Of a stretch of 64,000 bases of DNA, positions 7,254 through 17,297 are shown piece by piece. The stretch is from contig JBNRMN010000002.1 of the NCBI GenBank assembly GCA_050309605.1, forward strand, positions 16,438 through 80,437, in the 5' to 3' direction. Origin of the DNA: Anaerohalosphaeraceae bacterium (lineage in GTDB: Bacteria; Planctomycetota; Phycisphaerae; Sedimentisphaerales; Anaerohalosphaeraceae). The stretch's first letter is position 1; every line of letters starts with the position of its first letter. The translations under genes were made by a program, and so were the position numbers. Under the pieces are notes generated by a model. It was not told the DNA's origin. It was given only the letters and a program-made list of their open reading frames with translations, and ran no database searches.

Positions 7254-8141
7254 GTGTCGAGAGGGCGATTTTTCACACGACGCTCGGCGTCTGATTCCGT
7301 GCGGGTCGGTGCGCTGAGCCTGTCCGTTGCGGTTCATCTGGCGGCGTTGACCGTGCTGGGATCGGTGCATTTCCGACGTGATGCCGAGATGCCGGCTGAA
7401 GCGGTTTCGGCGGATATTTCCGTTCACGTGGTTGAACGGATTCTTGAATCGCCGCCGGCGCCCAAACCCAAGCCGAGGATTGAGCCGACACCTGCCCCGA
7501 CCGTGGCGCGCCCCTTGCCCAAGCCCGCTGAGCCTGCGCCGCCGTCGCCTAAGCAGGAACCGGCACAACCGGTCGTTTCGAAACCGGACAGCCGTCCGGC
7601 GGATACGGTGTTTTTTTCCGGTACGACCGTCGCGGCCAAGCGAGTGTGCTATGTGGTGGACGGTTCGGGCAGTATGTTTGGGCTGATGTATCTGGTGCGC
7701 GAGCAGTTGCGTGAGTCGATTCTGAAATTGTCGGCCGAGCAGTCGTTTAATGTGGTGTTTTTTATGGAAAACGGGCAGCTTTTGCAGGCGTTCGAGGGGA
7801 CGCTTGAGAAGGCAAGCCCGTCGGCCAAGGCCGAGGCGCTGAATTTGCTCGGACGTATCCGGCCGGGAGGACAGACGATTGCCGAAGACGCGCTCGGGGC
7901 GGCTATGACGATGCGCGACAAAAGCGGACGCCGGGCGGAAGTGCTCTATTTTGTAACTGATGGGTTTGACCTGATGGACGGTGACGGTCAGGCGTTTATC
8001 CGACGGATTGACGCCCTTCGACAGTCGGTATCGCCGGGGACGGTCGTCCACACCATCGGCATCTATCCGGAAGCACGGGACAGCGGCATTCTGTCGCGAT
8101 TGGCGCAGGTGTGCGGCGGGCGGTATATCGAGGTGAATTGA
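7254..8141 (+). CDS. Membrane-anchored vWA-domain protein with Pro-rich (TonB-like) linker
   Basis: SxxxH TM helix, Pro-rich stretch, MIDAS YVVDGSGSM, FVTDG, VHTIG. Confidence 0.85.
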   Translation: MSRGRFFTRRSASDSVRVGALSLSVAVHLAALTVLGSVHFRRDAEMPAEAVSADISVHVVERILESPPAPKPKPRIEPTPAPTVARPLPKPAEPAPPSPKQEPAQPVVSKPDSRPADTVFFSGTTVAAKRVCYVVDGSGSMFGLMYLVREQLRESILKLSAEQSFNVVFFMENGQLLQAFEGTLEKASPSAKAEALNLLGRIRPGGQTIAEDALGAAMTMRDKSGRRAEVLYFVTDGFDLMDGDGQAFIRRIDALRQSVSPGTVVHTIGIYPEARDSGILSRLAQVCGGRYIEVN

Positions 8142-8369
8142 GTGCCCACCGGCATCGTGTTTTGCGCCAGGGGATGTGGCTGTTGTATTCATTGGCATGG
8201 GTTATCGCGATACTGGTTTGCGCGACGCCGGTTAAATGGGAGAAAAAGCAAATTTTTTAAGAAATTATGTTTTTTTCCTGTAACGGAGGTATAATAGAAA
8301 CGTCCTCTTAAACAGGATGAACAGGACTTTTTACAGGACATTCTATATCCATCAATTAAGGAGACGGTT

Positions 8370-11258
8370 ATGATATTTCCGAGAACCGGCATTATTGCAT
8401 CCTTTTTTCTGATTTTTTCGATGGGTGCATTGGGGGATGTGCAATGGCTGCGTTATCGAACCAGTGAGGATGTGGGCCAGGAGGTGGGCGCCTCGGTGAA
8501 CCGGTATTATCGCAGTTTTGAGTCGCAGCGTCCGGAGCACGTGCGGTGTCCGGAATTCAAATCCGACAGTCCCTTGTTTATTAAATGGAACACCCCGATG
8601 GACGGGCAGGGTTTTCGGTGGATCGCGTTGGATCGTTCGACGCCGTATGGACAATATGATCTGTTGTATATCGATTCAAACGGCGACGGGCATCTGGATG
8701 ACGAGAAGCCGTATCAGGGGCGGCGAAGCGATCAGTATCGTATGGCCTTTCATCCGTTTCCTGTCTATCTGACCGGCGAGGACGGGCCGATTACCTATCA
8801 TCTGGCGTGCCAATTCTACAGCTATGATGAGCGCAGTCGATATTTGATGATGTCTTCGGGCGGTTATTATGAAGGGACGGTGTTGATCGGCGGCGAACCG
8901 GTTGGGTGTGTTCTGGTGGATACCAACGGCAACGGGACGTTTGACGATACGGCTGAGGACTTTAACGCCGACCGGATTTTGCTGGGTGAAGGACAAAATC
9001 GGCGGGAGTATTTTGTGGGTCGCTATCTGGATTATGAAGGGACGTTGTATCGGCTTCAGATTGCACGCGACGGGGCGTTTGTGTCTCTTGCGGCTGCGCC
9101 CGACGTATCGTTTGGGGTCGTGCAGGTTCCCGAAGGTTTGACGAAATTCTCGGCCGGGGGTGTTAATGGAATGTATCACATGTCGCCGGAAAACGGGCAC
9201 GTGCGCCTGCCGGAAGGGACGTATCGGGTGTATCAATGGGAGTTGGTTCGTCAGGACAAGGGGCAGGACTGGACCTTGCGGGGAAGCAATTTTCCGCGTC
9301 AGCAGAGTTTTACGGTCAGCGCCGATACGCCGGCGAGGGTGGCTGTCGGCGAGCCGGTATTTTCGCGGCTGTCGGTTTCCGAACGACAGGGAATCTATTC
9401 GATCAATCAGGAACTTCGGGGCAAGATGAACGAGCAGGTCAGTGTGCTGCGAAACGGTCGGCAGCCGCCGGCGCCGAAGGTGCATATTCGCAGCCAAACG
9501 GGCGCGTATGACCGGACGTTTTCGCTGGAGTATGGGTGAGGCGGTACCTGTTCGCTCTCGTGGCGAGAGCCGAGGAATATTGAGCGTCCGTATGTTATAA
9601 CGCCGCTGGTCGAGGGGCCGTTTGATATACGGCAGATGCGCTATGTTTTTAAGCCGCTGCATCGTTCGGTACCGGTCGTCGGGCCGTGGATTGCCGAGGT
9701 TGCCGCCGATGAGGCGCTGCGCGTGGTGGTTGACGGTACGGGGCTGGTTGACCGTAACGGCGACCGTTTGCCGGAGCATTTGACGCAAACCGAGACGCAG
9801 TGGATTGTATCGCAAGAGGAGGTGGGAGAAGGGCTTGTCTTTGATTTCGGCCAAGCGGTCGAGTTGGAAACGCTTCAAATCTGGAATTACAATGAGCCGG
9901 GCTATACATCGCGCGGCGTCGCGCAGGCGGATGTATCGGTCTGGACGTCTGAAGGCGACTGGAAGACGGTTTTGCGCGGCGCGTCGCTGCAAGAAGCCGA
10001 AGGGACAGACCAGTATGATGAGCCGACCCTGCTGAGGCTTGTCCCGACGCGGGCCGAGAAGGTGCGGCTGAGCAATCTTAAGCCGTTTGCCGATGAGGGG
10101 TTTGTCGGTTTGTCGGCGATCCGGTTTTATGAGAAGGCCACGTTGGCGGCCTGCAATCCGCAGCCGCCGGGAGGGGCATCGCTGCCGTTCAGTTCTCAGG
10201 CGACGTTGTTCTGGACGCCGGGTAAAGAGGCGGCTGCGTATGATGTGTACGCCGGAATCGACGGTCAAGAGCCGGCGTTTTTGGGTCGCATTGCGGAATC
10301 TCAGGTCAAACTGGTCGGGCTGGTCGGCGAACGAACATATCGGTGGCGCATTGATGCGGTACAAACGAATGGTACCGTTACGCAAGGGCCGCTGTGGTCG
10401 TTTTCGGTTGAGCCGGGCCGCTGTGTGGCGCATTGGCCGTTTGATGAACACGAAGGCCAAACGGCTGCCGATTCGCTCGGTCAGGCGGCCGGTGTGTTGA
10501 GAGGTGAACCGGCGTGGCTGATTGACGGCGGACGGATTGACGGGGCCATCGAGCTGGACGGTCAGCGTGATTTTGTCGAAACGCCGGCGCTGCATTTGAA
10601 CACTGATACGCTGACGATGACTGTCTGGCTGCGGGCTGATCCGCCGCCGAATCAACTGACCGGCGTGATGTTCTGCCGCACGCCTTCGACGGTGGCGGGA
10701 ATTCACTTGAGCGGTACGAATCTGCGGTATCACTGGAATGATCTTCCGGAAAGTTATAATTGGGACAGCGGACTGAGTCTTCCGACGGATGGCAGGTGGG
10801 TGTTTGCCGCCCTGACGGTTACGCCGGAGTCGGCCAGGCTGTACCTGCATCATGACGGTGAGCTGAAGACAGCGGAAAATCGTCTCGTTCATTCCGTTCA
10901 GCCCTTTGACGGGCCGTTGACATTGGGATGTGACGGCGGGATCAATGACCGCAATTTCAAAGGTCGTATGGATGATGCGCGGGTGTATAATTATGCGCTG
11001 ACTGCTGAACAGATTCTTGCACTGGCCGAGGGACGTGAGCCGGCGGATTACGCTTCAGATGCGGCGCCGTCGCTGGCGCTGGCCGGTGCGGAATTGATCC
11101 AGCGCGACGCGGATTTGAAGGCGATCGCCGAGGCTCGGCAGCGCGAGCGACAAGCGGCTCCGCCGGCCGAGGTGCGCCGACGCAATATCCTGCCGGTGCT
11201 GGTGATTGTGGCGTTGATTGCCGCCGCGGCGGTGGTCTTGGGCAGGAAGTCCGCATAA
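8370..11258 (+). CDS. Putative exported selenoprotein (962 aa, Sec390; UxxxC motif, discoidin-like and LamG domains, C-terminal TM)
   Basis: ORFs 8370-9539 and 9636-11258 are in the same frame, separated only by TGA at 9537-9539. Read-through gives EYG-U-GGTCSLSWREP, and a SECIS-like hairpin follows. Signal peptide; FKGRMDDARVYNYALT LamG motif. Confidence 0.8.
9554..9570 (+). promoter_or_regulatory. Candidate bacterial SECIS hairpin
   Basis: GCTCTCG-TGG-CGAGAGC, perfect 7-bp stem; loop at +22..+24 after the TGA. Confidence 0.8.
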
Positions 11259-11382
11259 ACCGCAGAATAAGCAGTGAAACGTCAGATTTCACAAACTAAA
11301 CAGAGAACGTTCTATTATGCGGCACGATCCTTCCGGCCGTATTGAAGGGGGATCGTGCCCGTGCTGCAAGGGAGGTTTCAGG

Positions 11383-13821
11383 ATGCGTCAAGTCATAAGC
11401 AGAAACGGGTGGACGTGGGTTATGGTTGTGTCGGCGGTACTCGGTGCGGCTGAGGCGAAAACGCTCAAAGGCACGGTCACCGGTCCTGACGGCGCACCGG
11501 TGGACGGCGCGGCGGTGAGTGTCTATGCGGCCCAGCTTAAGATTGAATCGCTTGCTTTTGAGGTTCAGCCGGTCGGTCAGACGACGACGTGTTCGTCGGG
11601 ACTGTTTTCGGTGGAGACGGATGTTCAGATGCTGTCCAGCGAGGGAGGCTGGCTGTTTTTTGCGGAAAAGCCGGGCCTGTCAATCGGTTTTTCTTTGCTG
11701 CAAGACTTCTCGGAGGACAGCACGTCGCTTCAACTGACCGCGCCGCAGACATTGGCCGGACGGATTGAGGATATTCACGGTAATGCGGTTGCCGGGGCCG
11801 GGGTGCGTCTGCTGGTTTTATCGGTTCCGGGTGAGCGTGAGTGCTATACGCTGGGGCTTGAGCCGATCCCGTTTTTTGCTGCGGAAACGGATGCGCAGGG
11901 GCGATTTGAATTCGCGAATCTGCCGGAAAACTGTACGGCTGAACTCTTGGCCAAAAAGGCGGGACTGGCGACCTTTCATACGCTGACGTCCAACATCAAT
12001 CCGCAAACGGGGCTGAGTTTTTCGGTCGGGCAGGAAGATATTGTCCTGACCTTATCCGAGGCGTGTCGAATCAGCGGTATAGTGACCGACCAGGACAATC
12101 AGCCGGTGGGTCATGTGCAGATTGTGGCGATTGAAGCGGACCATCCGCAGATCGGGATTTTTACCCGGAATCTAACACGCGCCGAGGCCGACGGGACATT
12201 CAGCTTCGGCGGCCTGTCGGCCGGGTCATATCGACTCAGTGTGATTGATGCGGACTGGATGTCCGAGCCGGTTACCGTGGAGGTCAAGACGGAGGTGGGT
12301 GTGCCGCTGAAGGTCGTCAAGGGCAGCCTGCTGACAGTGACGGTGGTGGACGGCGTTTCCAATCAGCCGGTTGGATCGGCTCAAGTCAATGTGAGTCCGC
12401 AGGATGAACGCAGCAGTTTCTCGTTCGGCAGGGGCACGACCGATCCGGAGGGCAAAGTGCAAAGTCGCGTTTTGCCGGGGACGTATAATGTGTACGTCAG
12501 TGCGCCCGGATATCGCAGCAGCCGCAGTGTCGCGGCGGTCGTGGAAGACGGCAAGACCAATGAGATCACGATTATGCTGGGCGCAACGGCCCGCATTGCC
12601 GGAACGGTTACCGATTCCGACGGGCGGCCCGTTGCAGGGGCACAAGTCTTTGTGCTCCCCTTTTCGGGTAATGTGCGGGACGCCATACAGACAACCGACG
12701 AAAAGGGGCACTTTACCCTTGGGTGGGATCCGGAGCAGATCAGTTGGGTACAGGGTGAATTCTATCTTGCCGCGATTGACAAAAGCAGCAACCGTGCGGT
12801 GATTGAGCCGATTGACGCGGACACCACGGACATCCAGCTTACCCTTCAGCCCGGTCTGACGATCACCGGCAAAGTGACCGGCCCGGACGGCGAATCTCTG
12901 GCCGGGGCGGGGGTGAATGTGCAGTTTCGCGGCTCAAACTGGTCTTCGACGCTTCAGGGATACACCGCCCAAACCGACCGGGACGGGATGTATCGTATTG
13001 CCGCCATACCGCCGCAGCAGCGGTATTACTTATTCATCAGTGGGCCGACCGGTTATGGCACCGGGTCGGTTAATCTGGAGTTACCGACGGACGGCGATGT
13101 GGTTACCGCATCCGATACGGTGCTGAAATTGGCCAATCTGTCGGTATCCGGCAAGGTGGTTGATGAGGACGGCAATCCGCTGGAGGGGGTGAATCTGCAT
13201 TGTTACGGCTCCGGCCAGCCCAGCGCCCAGGCGCGAACCGGCACGGATGGGACATTTGTGTTTGATGCGGTCTGCCAAGGCGATCTGTCCATTCAGGCCA
13301 ATTATCAAAAAGACGGCGAGTATATGTATTCCAATGTCCGAACCGAAGGCGGAGCGCAGGAGGTCACGATCGTCCTGGGCCCGCAAAGCTCCGGCGGCGG
13401 CTATGTGCCGCGACGGCCGGCCCCGCTGGTCGGCAAGCTGCTGCCGGATTTGTCGGGGTACGGCATTGAGCTTGAGAGGCAGGCCGGGCCGGTGCTGGTA
13501 TGCGTCTGGGACTGGCGGCAGCGGCCGAGCCGTTATATGGTGCGGCAACTGGCCGCGCGGGCCGGTGCGCTGGCCGAGCGGTCGGTACAGGTCGTGCTGC
13601 TCAATGGCGAATCGACGGAACGTGAGCCGCTCGATGCGTGGCTGGCTGATTTTGACATTCCGTTCGTCTGCGGCGTTATCGCCATCGACCCCGATAATTC
13701 TCGATTTAATCTCGGCGTCCAGGCGATGCCGTGGCTGATTTTAACCGATGGTCAGCGCAAGGTCATTGCTGAAGGGTTTGCGCTGTCCGAATTGACTGAT
13801 AAGCTGGGCGGACTGCAATAA
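11383..13821 (+). CDS. Exported protein with carboxypeptidase-regulatory-like repeats and a C-terminal thioredoxin-like fold
   Basis: Signal peptide; repeated G.V.D.DG.P..GA.V ... TD..G.F units; C-terminal LPDL..PVLVCVW..QRPS..AMPWLILTD. Confidence 0.8.
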   Translation: MRQVISRNGWTWVMVVSAVLGAAEAKTLKGTVTGPDGAPVDGAAVSVYAAQLKIESLAFEVQPVGQTTTCSSGLFSVETDVQMLSSEGGWLFFAEKPGLSIGFSLLQDFSEDSTSLQLTAPQTLAGRIEDIHGNAVAGAGVRLLVLSVPGERECYTLGLEPIPFFAAETDAQGRFEFANLPENCTAELLAKKAGLATFHTLTSNINPQTGLSFSVGQEDIVLTLSEACRISGIVTDQDNQPVGHVQIVAIEADHPQIGIFTRNLTRAEADGTFSFGGLSAGSYRLSVIDADWMSEPVTVEVKTEVGVPLKVVKGSLLTVTVVDGVSNQPVGSAQVNVSPQDERSSFSFGRGTTDPEGKVQSRVLPGTYNVYVSAPGYRSSRSVAAVVEDGKTNEITIMLGATARIAGTVTDSDGRPVAGAQVFVLPFSGNVRDAIQTTDEKGHFTLGWDPEQISWVQGEFYLAAIDKSSNRAVIEPIDADTTDIQLTLQPGLTITGKVTGPDGESLAGAGVNVQFRGSNWSSTLQGYTAQTDRDGMYRIAAIPPQQRYYLFISGPTGYGTGSVNLELPTDGDVVTASDTVLKLANLSVSGKVVDEDGNPLEGVNLHCYGSGQPSAQARTGTDGTFVFDAVCQGDLSIQANYQKDGEYMYSNVRTEGGAQEVTIVLGPQSSGGGYVPRRPAPLVGKLLPDLSGYGIELERQAGPVLVCVWDWRQRPSRYMVRQLAARAGALAERSVQVVLLNGESTEREPLDAWLADFDIPFVCGVIAIDPDNSRFNLGVQAMPWLILTDGQRKVIAEGFALSELTDKLGGLQ

Positions 13822-13883: not shown

Positions 13884-15038
13884 ATGAGACAATGGGTTGT
13901 TTTATGGGTCGCTTTCGCGGCGGCCGGGGCGATGGCGCTGACGGTTTCGGAGCAGACGCTTGATCTGTTTGGTACGTCCGAGCCGGAGGATCCGAATGCC
14001 GTGGTTCTCGCTGATCCGCCCTACACCGTCAAGGTGTCGCGCACGGGCAAAGTGCTGAATGTGGCGATTGAGACCGCGTCGCGTGAGCAGGCGGAATTGC
14101 TGTTCGGCGCGCATTATGAACAGTCGCCGAGACTGTCGATTTATAAGGGCGATTTGCTGCTGGCATCGGGGCAGTTCGCCTTTGGGTGAGGCGGCGTCTG
14201 TGCGTACTCGTGGCGAGTACCGATGTATGCTTATGGCACATTCAGAATCGAGACGGAAGTGCCGACCGGCGAAGGCGAACCGATCCGCGTCGAGCCGACG
14301 ACATATTATTTCAATCCGCTGTATCATGCGTCGGGGTTTGTCTATTTCGTTCCGGTTGCGGCGGCGTTTTTGTTCCTGAAAGAAAACCGGCGACCGAAGG
14401 CGTTTTTGATTCTGGCGCCAATGCTGCTGGTGATGGGGATGTGGAGAGGGTTTTCCGGAGTGATGCATTTTCCTGAAGAGGCGGTCAGCATGTTAAATTC
14501 AGTGGTTATGGCCTTGCTGGCGGGCCTTTCCGTTGTCTGGCTTCTGGGTGAGCGGATCGGCCATCGCCATCGGTTGGCAACGACTTTTCTGGCGGGCGGT
14601 ATTATGCTGGGGTGCTGTGCCCTGATGCTGGTAGAAATCTTTTCCTCGGACTATGTGTTTCAAATCGCATTTTTCGGTGTGATCAGTGCGGCGGTTATCC
14701 TGTCGGGCTTACTTGTCGGCGGTTTCCTGAGCCGGAAGCGATTTGGCCCGGTGCGTTTTTTGCTATGGTTCGGTGTGGGCATTTTATCGGCGACTTTTGT
14801 GCTGTTTTTTGTTTATTATGCGATTTTGACATTTTCCTATTTCAGTGCAGATTTGTTCTGGATGTTGTTGGGCGTGATGCTGACTTATGCCGCAATCTAT
14901 TGGGTAGGCGTCTTGCCGTTTCTGGTGCTGTTTTTCGTCAATGACTTTTGGCGGCAGCGGTTTACGGCGGTCATGGGATTGGGCACTGTAGCCGTATCCG
15001 AGACGGAAGCTCACGAGGCGTTTACGTCTGACTTCTGA
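13884..15038 (+). CDS. Putative membrane selenoprotein (384 aa, Sec102; exported UxxxC domain plus multi-TM domain)
   Basis: ORFs 13884-14189 and 14223-15038 are in frame, separated only by TGA at 14187-14189. Read-through gives FAFG-U-GGVCAYSWRVP, and a SECIS-like hairpin follows. Confidence 0.8.
14204..14220 (+). promoter_or_regulatory. Candidate bacterial SECIS hairpin
   Basis: GTACTCG-TGG-CGAGTAC, perfect 7-bp stem; loop at +22..+24 after the TGA. Confidence 0.8.
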
Positions 15039-15886
15039 TCGCCCAGTTCCGTCGGTTCGTCCAGCAGGGTGGCCGGCTTCAGTGCGCCGGGGCCGCATTT
15101 TGTGCATTCCAGACAGCGGATGCAGTGGTCGGCGTTGGGGGTCTTATCGGGCTGGACGCCGTAGCGGCACAGGGTTCGACAGCGGCCGCATTGGGTGCAT
15201 TGGTGTTCTTCCAGGTTCAGTGTAAACAGAGAAAACCGATTGAAAAAGCCGAAAATCGCACCCAGCGGGCACAGAATTCGACACCACGGGCGGATGGTAA
15301 AAAAGATGGCGGCGACAAAGACGACGATGATGGTGATTTTGAGGGTGTTGGGCCAGGGGATTACGTCGCCGGCGACGGCGGCGGAAACCACATCGGGCAG
15401 GGCCTTTTCCAGCCCGCCGGCCGGGCAGATACGGCAGATAAACAGCGGGTGGCCTTCGCCGAAAAAGTAGGGGACGGCCAGGACTGTCCCGATCAGTACG
15501 ACATAGCGAAAATGCCCCATCCAGCGGGGGATTTTGAAACGCGGCGCGGGGACCTTGGCCGCGACATCCTGAAGCAGGCCGAACGGACACATCCAGCCGC
15601 ACACCAGCGAGCCGAGCATCACGCCGAACGCGATCAGCAGTCCCACGGCAAAATACGGAAACAGGTGCAGCGCACTGAATTGGGCAATGACGCCGATGGG
15701 GCAGCCGAACAAGGCCAGCGGACAGGCATAGCAATGGAACACCGGTCCGCACACGGTGTGCATCCGCAACCCGAACGGATCGAGCCAGACCAGCAAAAAA
15801 CCCGTCTGTACCCACAGCCGATGCGGCAGGAGTTTTTTGAAAAACCGCGACAGCGGCGATGACGATGAATTGACCGTGGACACCAC
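15011..15886 (-). CDS. Membrane 4Fe-4S binding protein (NapH/YccM-like polyferredoxin)
   Basis: CGWMCPFG and WCRILCPLG CxxxCP motifs; CTQCGRCRTLC and CIRCLECTKC ferredoxin motifs; TM helices; AAGGAGG RBS (start may be the second GTG, 15883). Confidence 0.9.
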   Translation of the reverse strand: MVSTVNSSSSPLSRFFKKLLPHRLWVQTGFLLVWLDPFGLRMHTVCGPVFHCYACPLALFGCPIGVIAQFSALHLFPYFAVGLLIAFGVMLGSLVCGWMCPFGLLQDVAAKVPAPRFKIPRWMGHFRYVVLIGTVLAVPYFFGEGHPLFICRICPAGGLEKALPDVVSAAVAGDVIPWPNTLKITIIVVFVAAIFFTIRPWCRILCPLGAIFGFFNRFSLFTLNLEEHQCTQCGRCRTLCRYGVQPDKTPNADHCIRCLECTKCGPGALKPATLLDEPTELGDQKSDVNAS

Positions 15887-16286: not shown

Positions 16287-17297
16287 TTATGTTGTCGGTT
16301 TGATTTCCAGCGGATGGGCGTTTTGATATTGTTCCTGCATTCGACTGGTGGTGATATGCGTATAAATCTGGGTTGTCGATAACGATTGGTGTCCCAGCAG
16401 TTCCTGAACGCTTCGCAGGTCGGCACCGTTGTTGAGCATATGGGTCGCGAAGCTGTGCCGCAGCGTGTGCGGGCTGATGTTCGGGTCCAGACCCGCCTCG
16501 ATGAGGTATTTGTCCATTTTTCGGCGGACGCTGCGGGCACTCATCCGTTTGCCGTGCTTGTTGGCAAACAGCACTTTACTGTCAAAGCCCGGATCATTGG
16601 CCAGACGGCGGCTGCGAAACTCCAGATAATGTTGAATGCTCTGCAGCGCTGTCAGACCAATCGGGCAAATCCGTTCTTTTTTGCCTTTGCCGCGGACGTG
16701 AATCACTTCGCCGAGGAAATCCACATCTTCCATATTCAGGGCCACCAGTTCGCTGACCCGCATCCCCGTGCTGTAGAGTACTTCCATCATCGCTCGGTCG
16801 CGGGCACCCAGCCATGTGGTGGCCGGCGGTGTGTTCAGCAGCCGCTGAACCTGCTCGTATTCAAGAAACTTGGGCAGTTTTTTATCTTGTTTGGGTGTTT
16901 TGATATTGGTGGCCGGATTGCTGGACACATAATTGCGCTTGACGAGAAATTTGTAAAAGCTGCGCACCGTGGCCAGTTTGCGTGCGGTGGTGGATTTGGA
17001 ATAGGCGTGGGAGTTCAATTCCGCCAGAAAACGGCGTATCGTATTGACGTCCGCAGCCTGCAGCAGGGTATCGATCTGGGTTTGTGCCTGGGTCTGTGTT
17101 TGTGTCGCGACCGAACCGTTCTCGGCGGCCCAGGGATTTTGTCCGTTGTCGTCGGGGCCGTGCGCGTCGGCGTGGGCGGCCAGAAAGGCGCTGTACTGCT
17201 CCAGGTCAGCCTCATAACACTTGGCGGTATGCTCGGAAAAATGTTTTTCAAATTTCAGATAATTGACAAAATCCTGGATAATCGCCGAGTTGTCCAT
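16287..17297 (-). CDS. xerC: Tyrosine recombinase XerC
   Basis: RD.A..E.LYSTGMRVSEL, GKGKKER, SPHTLRHSFATH.L..GADLR.VQELLGH.SLSTTQIYTH. Confidence 0.88.
   Translation of the reverse strand: MDNSAIIQDFVNYLKFEKHFSEHTAKCYEADLEQYSAFLAAHADAHGPDDNGQNPWAAENGSVATQTQTQAQTQIDTLLQAADVNTIRRFLAELNSHAYSKSTTARKLATVRSFYKFLVKRNYVSSNPATNIKTPKQDKKLPKFLEYEQVQRLLNTPPATTWLGARDRAMMEVLYSTGMRVSELVALNMEDVDFLGEVIHVRGKGKKERICPIGLTALQSIQHYLEFRSRRLANDPGFDSKVLFANKHGKRMSARSVRRKMDKYLIEAGLDPNISPHTLRHSFATHMLNNGADLRSVQELLGHQSLSTTQIYTHITTSRMQEQYQNAHPLEIKPTT

Follow-up and report, generated by a model that had tools for sequence, protein, structure and literature searches.

An in-frame TGA probably decoded as selenocysteine in a previously undescribed family of exported β-sandwich proteins from anaerobic Phycisphaerae

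Introduction

When two open reading frames (ORFs) are separated by nothing but an in-frame TGA and a short open stretch, the question arises whether that codon ends a gene or encodes an amino acid. Such a locus is found in a 64,000-nucleotide stretch of DNA from an Anaerohalosphaeraceae bacterium (assembly GCA_050309605.1, contig JBNRMN010000002.1, positions 16,438 to 80,437 of the forward strand), hereafter the window, to which coordinates refer unless another contig or locus is named. On its plus strand, an ORF at 8370..9539 (389 aa) ends with the TGA at 9537-9539, and the following 96 nt (9540-9635) contain no stop and are in the same frame as an ORF at 9636..11258 (540 aa). If the TGA is read as selenocysteine (Sec, U), a protein of 962 aa results, with the context ..SLEYG-U-GGTCSLSWREP... 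An initial annotation of the locus had joined the two ORFs in this way across a stop-free, in-frame stretch, and coordinates, sequence and translation agree with it on both counts. We refer to the whole of 8370..11258 (+) as gene A and to the TGA at 9537..9539 (+) as the codon of U390. From sequence comparison, we estimate at about 90% the probability that this TGA is decoded as Sec by means of SelB, tRNA-Sec and a hairpin lying just downstream, and that gene A encodes one 962-aa selenoprotein, which represents a new family and belongs to a conserved gene cluster.

Results

Homology extends through the TGA

A word-indexed search of 5.8 billion proteins returned only the C-terminal half of the gene A protein, called as a separate protein, and the name that NCBI gives to a split half is 'hypothetical protein'. 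In a six-frame search of 60 related genomes that read through stops, 23 of the 24 matches spanning residue 390 carried exactly one TGA, and in all 14 extracted loci it occupied the same column, within the motif (L/F)EYG-U-GGTC(S/L)L(S/T/R)W(R/P)(E/G)P. The TGA column is kept in homologs down to about 25% identity, and the region of the flanking motif is the most conserved stretch of the protein. Homology crosses the TGA in every relative examined, which bears out the initial view that the two halves make one protein. With a profile, 2341 matches at E ≤ 0.001 were obtained among 1.84 billion cluster representatives; in 128 of the best 150 the match stops at profile position 389, directly ahead of the TGA column, and seven read through it.

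A DNA pattern built on the nucleotides following the TGA was also scanned against one genome each of 185,579 species and found 96 stretches. Nearly all of these come from metagenome-assembled genomes labelled Phycisphaerae, Sedimentisphaerales, Anaerohalosphaeraceae, Planctomycetota or 'Pirellulales', with one labelled Verrucomicrobia and one Actinomycetes. The family appears to be confined to anaerobic Phycisphaerae (Sedimentisphaerales, Anaerohalosphaeraceae). In every one of the 80 loci retrieved, ..YG precedes the TGA in frame and 38 or more open codons come after it, and the frame upstream is at least 169 aa long in 79 of them, the remaining locus (L072) having 32 aa up to a contig end; since they were chosen by the DNA pattern, these loci show coding context and not independent conservation.

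The TGA could be an ordinary stop, in which case the 389-aa and 540-aa genes would lie in one frame by chance and the second would start at ATG 9636..9638 (+), the internal M423 of the long protein. ORF callers and all database copies examined do give two genes, and TGA is common as a stop in this genome. However, the 96-nt 'spacer' between these genes would then be the most conserved stretch of the protein, and the ATG used by the callers is itself not conserved: Met is found at this position in 2 of 12 aligned sequences, and the homolog P0004 (48% identical) begins upstream of it and has T where the window has M423. The purine-rich stretch closest to the ATG is GAGGGG at 9612-9617, 18 nt upstream, which in our reading is far away for a ribosome-binding site. 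The initial annotation had likewise seen no convincing ribosome-binding site at this place. Furthermore, the downstream piece has no signal peptide though its domains are of extracytoplasmic type, and the TGA and its hairpin are kept together at 25-50% protein identity, tracking selA (below). We thus regard termination at 9537 followed by a second gene as very improbable.

Cysteine forms and variant architectures

Cys forms, which the initial annotation had suggested as something to look for, do exist, but they are rare in the family. The homolog P0158 reads RYG-C-GGTCSLSWREP, and the three genomes G035, G108 and G163, which have no selA, encode FQSQ-C-CGNYR(L/F)(S/N)W with a Cys aligned to U. 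These four cases overturned an earlier idea that the family has no Cys form at all, which had come from the seven read-through representatives (0/7). One of the latter, P0024, has neither Sec nor Cys (..FEDRGGDTLVASWREP..) and is fused behind an N-terminal HExxH-containing region that looks BlaR1/M56-like by eye. Among loci L039, L049, L051 and L085, some have leucine-rich repeats in place of the usual N-terminal β-domain ahead of the Sec module, and others are short, comprising only a membrane helix and a two-domain module. Given these varied N-terminal parts and short forms, the Sec module behaves as a mobile unit.

A hairpin that behaves as a SECIS

The hairpin GCTCTCG-TGG-CGAGAGC that had been noted after the TGA is exact. 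It occupies 9554..9570 (+), with a 7-bp stem (9554-9560 / 9564-9570) and the loop UGG (9561-9563), starts 14 nt past the TGA, has an energy of -10.5 kcal/mol, and at the same time codes for (C)SLSWRE. Limits for bacterial Sec insertion sequences (SECIS) as to loop, position of the G, spacing and energy are set out in section 5 of PMC13188914, and the UGG loop, the 7-bp stem, the UGA-to-loop spacing of 21 nt and the energy all fall inside them. Taken as a single sequence the hairpin is unremarkable, the energy of the 21-nt hairpin being matched by 9 of 200 shuffles and the 81-nt context folding no better than shuffles (z +0.93), and the argument for it is drawn from conservation and covariation among related sequences.

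Directly past the TGA the sequence is near invariant, even at third codon positions. In 20 sequences found by protein similarity, a divergent subfamily included, pairing holds throughout the seven core pairs (140 of 140 cells), and four of the seven change on both sides (14 cells), as CG/UA, UA/AU, UA/CG and CG/GC. The covariation score is 0.301, as compared to a mean of 0.097 for shuffled alignments; none of 500 shuffles reached it, and controls slid along the alignment gave at most 0.074. The compensatory changes alter the encoded residues, turning SLSWRE into SLRWPE, SLTWRG or RYSWRV, which argues that RNA pairing is what is kept. By these comparative standards the hairpin behaves as a SECIS.

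Sec machinery and co-occurrence with the family

The genome, which is 99.7% complete, has a tRNA-Sec (74.4 bits; anticodon tca according to ARAGORN) adjoining selD, and a selA-selB pair; selA, selB and selD all score above curated cut-offs. FdhA was not found in this genome. Long ORFs end with TAA in 921 cases, TGA in 844 and TAG in 313, and a codon that ends 844 long ORFs has not been reassigned.

Among 151 genomes sampled evenly from the order, 38 have the family, 33 have selA and 31 have both, figures that are given as counts and not as a statistical test, the sampled genomes being related and not independent. selA is present in 31 of the 35 genomes with a TGA-bearing match. Seven genomes have the family without selA: three of them (G035, G108 and G163) carry the stop-free form only, and the other four are only 78-86% complete. 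Conversely, two genomes have selA but no family match. Profile position 390 is spanned by 85 of the 89 matches listed, 82 with a TGA and three, from G035, G108 and G163, with Cys instead, where the count refers to the presence of a TGA in the row and the column itself was established for the extracted loci.

One could also imagine that the TGA is read through or recoded without Sec, for instance by near-cognate suppression or reassignment to Trp or Gly, or that the gene is a pseudogene in decay; indeed, the inserted residue cannot be named from comparative data alone. Against this, the genome has a complete Sec machinery, whose occurrence goes with that of the family, the stop-free genomes without selA have at the U column Cys, the expected counterpart of Sec, TGA ends the 844 long ORFs mentioned above, and more than 100 genomes keep the one TGA without any other lesion. 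We consider such explanations even more improbable than an ordinary stop.

Several observations nevertheless weigh against the decoding of the gene A TGA as Sec. All of the support is comparative. A search of 8000-12000 with Rfam, at an E-value threshold, gave two hits at chance level and none at the TGA site; we know of no general bacterial SECIS model in Rfam. Finally, as the hairpin overlaps conserved codons, its conservation could be partly at the protein level.

Layout and fold of the gene A protein

From its N-terminus, the protein is predicted to comprise a signal peptide and a β-rich domain, then two FN3-like domains of which the second bears the Sec, a weak F5/8C-like region, a LamG domain and, at the C-terminus, a membrane anchor. 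The signal peptide and the anchor were called by eye, from a hydrophobic helix at residues 7-20 and from the hydrophobic stretch NILPVLVIVALIAAAAVVLG (11184..11243, +), which is followed by RKSA and has similar tails in relatives; the initial placement of the signal peptide in the upstream half and of the anchor in the downstream half agrees with these stretches. As the initial annotation suggested, termination at the TGA when selenium is scarce might set free an N-terminal half that has no anchor. In the Pfam and NCBIfam scans U was read as C. Laminin_G_3 (LamG, PF13385) matches residues 730-882 (10557..11015, +) with 71.3 bits against a cut-off of 27.6, and apart from this domain and the weak F5/8C region Pfam found nothing in gene A. 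The two domains suggest that the long form of the protein also binds glycan; the short forms lack both.

For structure prediction with AlphaFold2, U was likewise read as C. The models of residues 1-435 (48-sequence alignment) and 244-435 (50-sequence alignment) reached a predicted local distance difference test score (pLDDT) of 92.9 and 94.7, respectively. Both are all-β, with U390 in the turn between strands 381-385 and 394-399; for residues 244-435, DSSP assigns β-strands and no helix of four or more residues, a three-residue turn at 390-392 being seen in the first model only. The Sec-bearing domain (residues 328-432; 9351..9665, +) is thus predicted to be an FN3/Ig-like β-sandwich. Its best matches in VIA-align are sandwiches of the FN3, Ig and macroglobulin (MG) types (Z up to 9.1; root-mean-square deviation 2.7 Å; 92 residues aligned). 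The list is a flat series of generic β-sandwiches, indicating a common fold without a functional lead. Foldseek found no global match to the 435-residue model in the PDB (template modelling score ≤ 0.2).

A conserved cluster of four genes

Gene A is followed by gene B at 11317..13821 (+), in which Pfam recognizes at least five CarboxypepD_reg β-sandwich repeats. Its last approximately 130 residues form a TlpA/ResA-like thioredoxin-fold domain according to profile comparison with the PDB (2lrn, 3.3e-5; ResA 4nmu, 3.6e-5); Pfam gave no match to the last 173 residues as a single sequence. At the CxxC position this domain has QRPS, invariant in 10 of 10 orthologs, so gene B cannot itself be a dithiol reductase.

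The genome was also scanned for TGA codons flanked on either side by open frame and followed by a hairpin. When the 306 candidates were ranked by a two-sided coding score, the first was TGA 14187-14189 and the second that of gene A; those in places 3 to 9 resembled adjacent ordinary genes or ORFs in the wrong frame and were set aside. The top candidate belongs to gene C (13884..15038, +; 384 aa), which lies in the same cluster and is predicted to be a second selenoprotein of the same family; neither this gene nor the cluster had been noted in the initial annotation. Its TGA (14187..14189, +) is at the same column in orthologs of G002, G016, G023, G033, G039 and G046, that is, in all seven contexts that have gene C. 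The putative SECIS hairpin GTACTCG-TGG-CGAGTAC (14204..14220, +), again 14 nt past the TGA, covaries, two of its stem pairs differing from those of gene A on both sides. ORF callers give 14223..15038 only. The gene C protein consists of a signal peptide, one Sec-bearing FN3-like domain (..FAFG-U-GGVCAYSWRVP..; FEFG-U-GGTCSYSCRVP in G023 and G033) and a polytopic membrane domain, and matches nothing in Pfam or NCBIfam. Thiol transfer in the manner of DsbD was considered for gene C and dropped, as no conserved Cys was seen by eye in the membrane domain (G000 against G023 and G033).

Gene D (15011..15886, -) is convergent with gene C and encodes a NapH/MauN-like membrane polyferredoxin, with Fer4_5 at 49.4 bits (Pfam cut-off 22). 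It is 50-71% identical in the clusters of six relatives. Ten contexts were compared, the window among them: A adjoins B in every one, and C and D each occur in seven, several of the other contexts being cut by contig ends. Just past the cluster, at 16287-17297 (-), lies a tyrosine recombinase of the phage integrase family (Pfam, 180 bits). Considered along with the patchy occurrence of the cluster and of sel genes inside a single genus, this recombinase hints at an island that is acquired and lost.

Family members and another candidate near the sel genes

Of the 33 genomes in the sample that have selA, 18 carry a family copy no more than 1.5 kb away from it. In the genome under study, this copy is an 86-aa ORF without signal peptide (..MEYG-U-GSTCRYSWRVP..; G000:C34:83225-83386, -, equal to L138 1480-1740, -), located 349 nt from selA and divergent from it, in which the pairing of the hairpin is kept by compensatory change. 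The slot beside selA holds larger copies in many relatives, and the 86-aa ORF could represent a relic, a minimal family member or a leader that depends on Sec.

A candidate third selenoprotein, of approximately 86 aa, follows directly after selB (85200-87086) at G000:C34:87142-87402 (+). It has three hydrophobic helices, the sequence ..VLQPG-U-GNPFGVLG..GWC and a perfect 8-bp hairpin with a UGG loop 13 nt past the TGA. Its homolog in G025 (L158 6945-6715, -) is 52% identical, has the TGA at the same place, and is on the same contig and strand as selA, approximately 3 kb beyond it. Apart from this small membrane protein, the genome scan found no other convincing selenoprotein outside the family.

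Discussion

Possible function of the Sec domain

The comparisons above carry the Sec decoding of gene A, its unity as one gene, the existence of the family and of the cluster, and the linkage to selA. SelB and tRNA-Sec most probably decode TGA 9537-9539 as directed by the hairpin 14 nt downstream, and the protein is predicted to be exported so that its bulk lies outside the cytoplasmic membrane, held there by the C-terminal anchor. Sec390 is predicted at the tip of a glycine-rich β-hairpin (YG-U-GG-T-C), four residues from Cys394. As to chemistry, a scheme can be put forward. A Sec at a hairpin tip with a Cys four residues away, or a vicinal CC in the Cys forms, suits either a selenenylsulfide/disulfide couple or a soft-ligand site. 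The U...C hairpin may cycle between selenol/thiol and selenenylsulfide as part of a redox relay in the envelope, working in a four-gene system in which A would be joined by B, a β-sandwich stalk with a Cys-less TlpA-like end, C, a Sec-FN3 domain on a polytopic membrane part, and D, the NapH-like protein, which would supply the relay. We favour this relay because of the NapH-like and TlpA-like neighbours, and hold it to be possible, at somewhat less than even odds.

A number of findings weigh against a redox role. The predicted surroundings of the Sec are not a thioredoxin α/β fold, and the motif is U-G-G-T-C, that is U-x3-C, and not UxxC or CxxU. Cys394 is not kept in the Cys forms of G035, G108 and G163, which have the vicinal CC instead, and the seven read-through homologs are without both Sec and Cys. 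The CxxC position of gene B is occupied by the invariant QRPS, and contact among A, B, C and D is putative.

As the main alternative in terms of function, Sec is decoded but the Se/S pair serves as a soft ligand for a metal or metalloid, or as a selenium carrier that captures selenium for the Sec pathway. The vicinal CC of the Cys forms would fit this, as would the small family members beside selA in 18 of 33 genomes. In the table of PMC13188914, CU/CC motifs are mostly from families handling metals or organometals (MbdU, SaoC, HgcA, SaoL), and approximately 70% of the predicted Sec-ligand contacts reported there involve metals. Weak fold matches to the metal-binding Ig-like proteins P19/FtrA and Tp34 (Z 5.1-5.4) point the same way, although they are not above background. 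On the other hand, the invariant columns contain no conserved His or Met to accompany the Se/S pair, for which reason a CuA-like site, which the C-x3-C spacing had brought to mind, was set aside. The neighbours of NapH and TlpA type speak for redox chemistry, and a selenium island gained and lost as one unit might by itself account for the linkage to selA. A ligand or carrier role is in our opinion conceivable and on the unlikely side.

To return to the redox relay, an extended version of it, which we regard as doubtful when taken as a whole, would be that the Sec-FN3 family and the four-gene cluster form a dedicated selenium-dependent envelope system that is the main reason why these anaerobic Phycisphaerae retain the Sec machinery. 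In this version the exposed U-x3-C hairpins of A and C would dock into the Cys-less TlpA-like domain of B, forming a split active site to which D gives electrons, and the set, including the copies adjacent to selA and the small selenoprotein on the selB side, would come and go as one selenium island. If true, this would be a selenol relay of a new kind, located outside the cytoplasm and based on Ig-like domains instead of thioredoxin folds.

Implications

A well-supported selenoprotein family is added here that is missing from Pfam and NCBIfam and from the table of the newest published inventory (119 families, PMC13188914). Gene callers routinely split it, as seen from the 128 of the best 150 representatives that stop at the TGA, and the DNA signature of the SECIS offers a simple means of correcting such annotations. 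With Sec placed on an exported FN3/Ig-like domain and not on a thioredoxin fold, the range of structural settings for this residue becomes wider. In the near-invariant SECIS, which encodes a conserved β-strand as well, the same nucleotides are clearly constrained both as RNA and as protein. The family may explain why the costly Sec machinery is kept by a patchy subset of an understudied clade of polysaccharide-degrading anaerobes, and its conserved partners, NapH-like and Cys-less TlpA-like, make its function open to experiment.

Comparison with known selenoproteins and related systems

The family is a previously undescribed one and is in no list that we found. Table 1 (119 families) and the operon section of PMC13188914 contain nothing with this motif, domain or taxon, and the new families in the accessible text of the deep-Sep paper (PMC12013277) differ from it. 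NCBIfam release 20 gave weak, unrelated matches to gene A, with none above cut-off for residues 1-450, and a search of full-text literature linking selenoproteins to taxa of Phycisphaerae or Planctomycetota, supplements being outside its scope, brought up no publication on a protein of this kind. A β-sandwich fold also occurs in DUF1573, which is widespread among Planctomycetes. The model of this domain (PF07610), listed with UGC in the table of PMC13188914, does not match the gene A protein, nor does that of 'hypothetical protein DG' (NF049953), whose GUxG motif fits G-U-G-G.

With TsoA (LULAxC) and the Tso/SAO operons described in PMC13188914, the present system shares the U-x3-C spacing and the occurrence of several selenoprotein genes in a conserved cluster, but no NCBIfam match to NF045695 or to any other Tso/Sao model was found at E ≤ 0.1, and partners and taxa are different. 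Proteins with a thioredoxin fold and a UxxC or CxxU motif make up the majority of characterised selenoproteins according to the same source. As in these, the Sec of gene A is close to a Cys and compatible with a selenenylsulfide; unlike them, gene A has U-x3-C in a predicted all-β, FN3/Ig-like setting without helix, and the thioredoxin-like fold in this cluster sits instead on the neighbour B, without Cys. The last domain of gene B aligns with the TlpA/ResA thiol reductases but has QRPS where these have CxxC. Likewise, gene D resembles the polyferredoxins of the NapH/NosH/CcoG type in having Fer4_5 and CxxCP-type motifs, whereas its score with the NCBIfam model napH (TIGR02163), 66.4 bits, is far below the cut-off of 213.

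In terms of decoding, there is a close parallel with selenoproteins of the FdhA/GrdB type, with which gene A has in common an in-frame UGA with a directly downstream hairpin within published limits, a dependence on selA, selB, selD and tRNA-Sec, and Sec/Cys pairs among homologs. It differs from them in protein family, fold and cellular location, and in that its SECIS is near invariant and doubles as the codons of a conserved β-strand. Gene A and its relatives use the usual bacterial route of Sec decoding, and what sets them apart is their structural and genomic surroundings.

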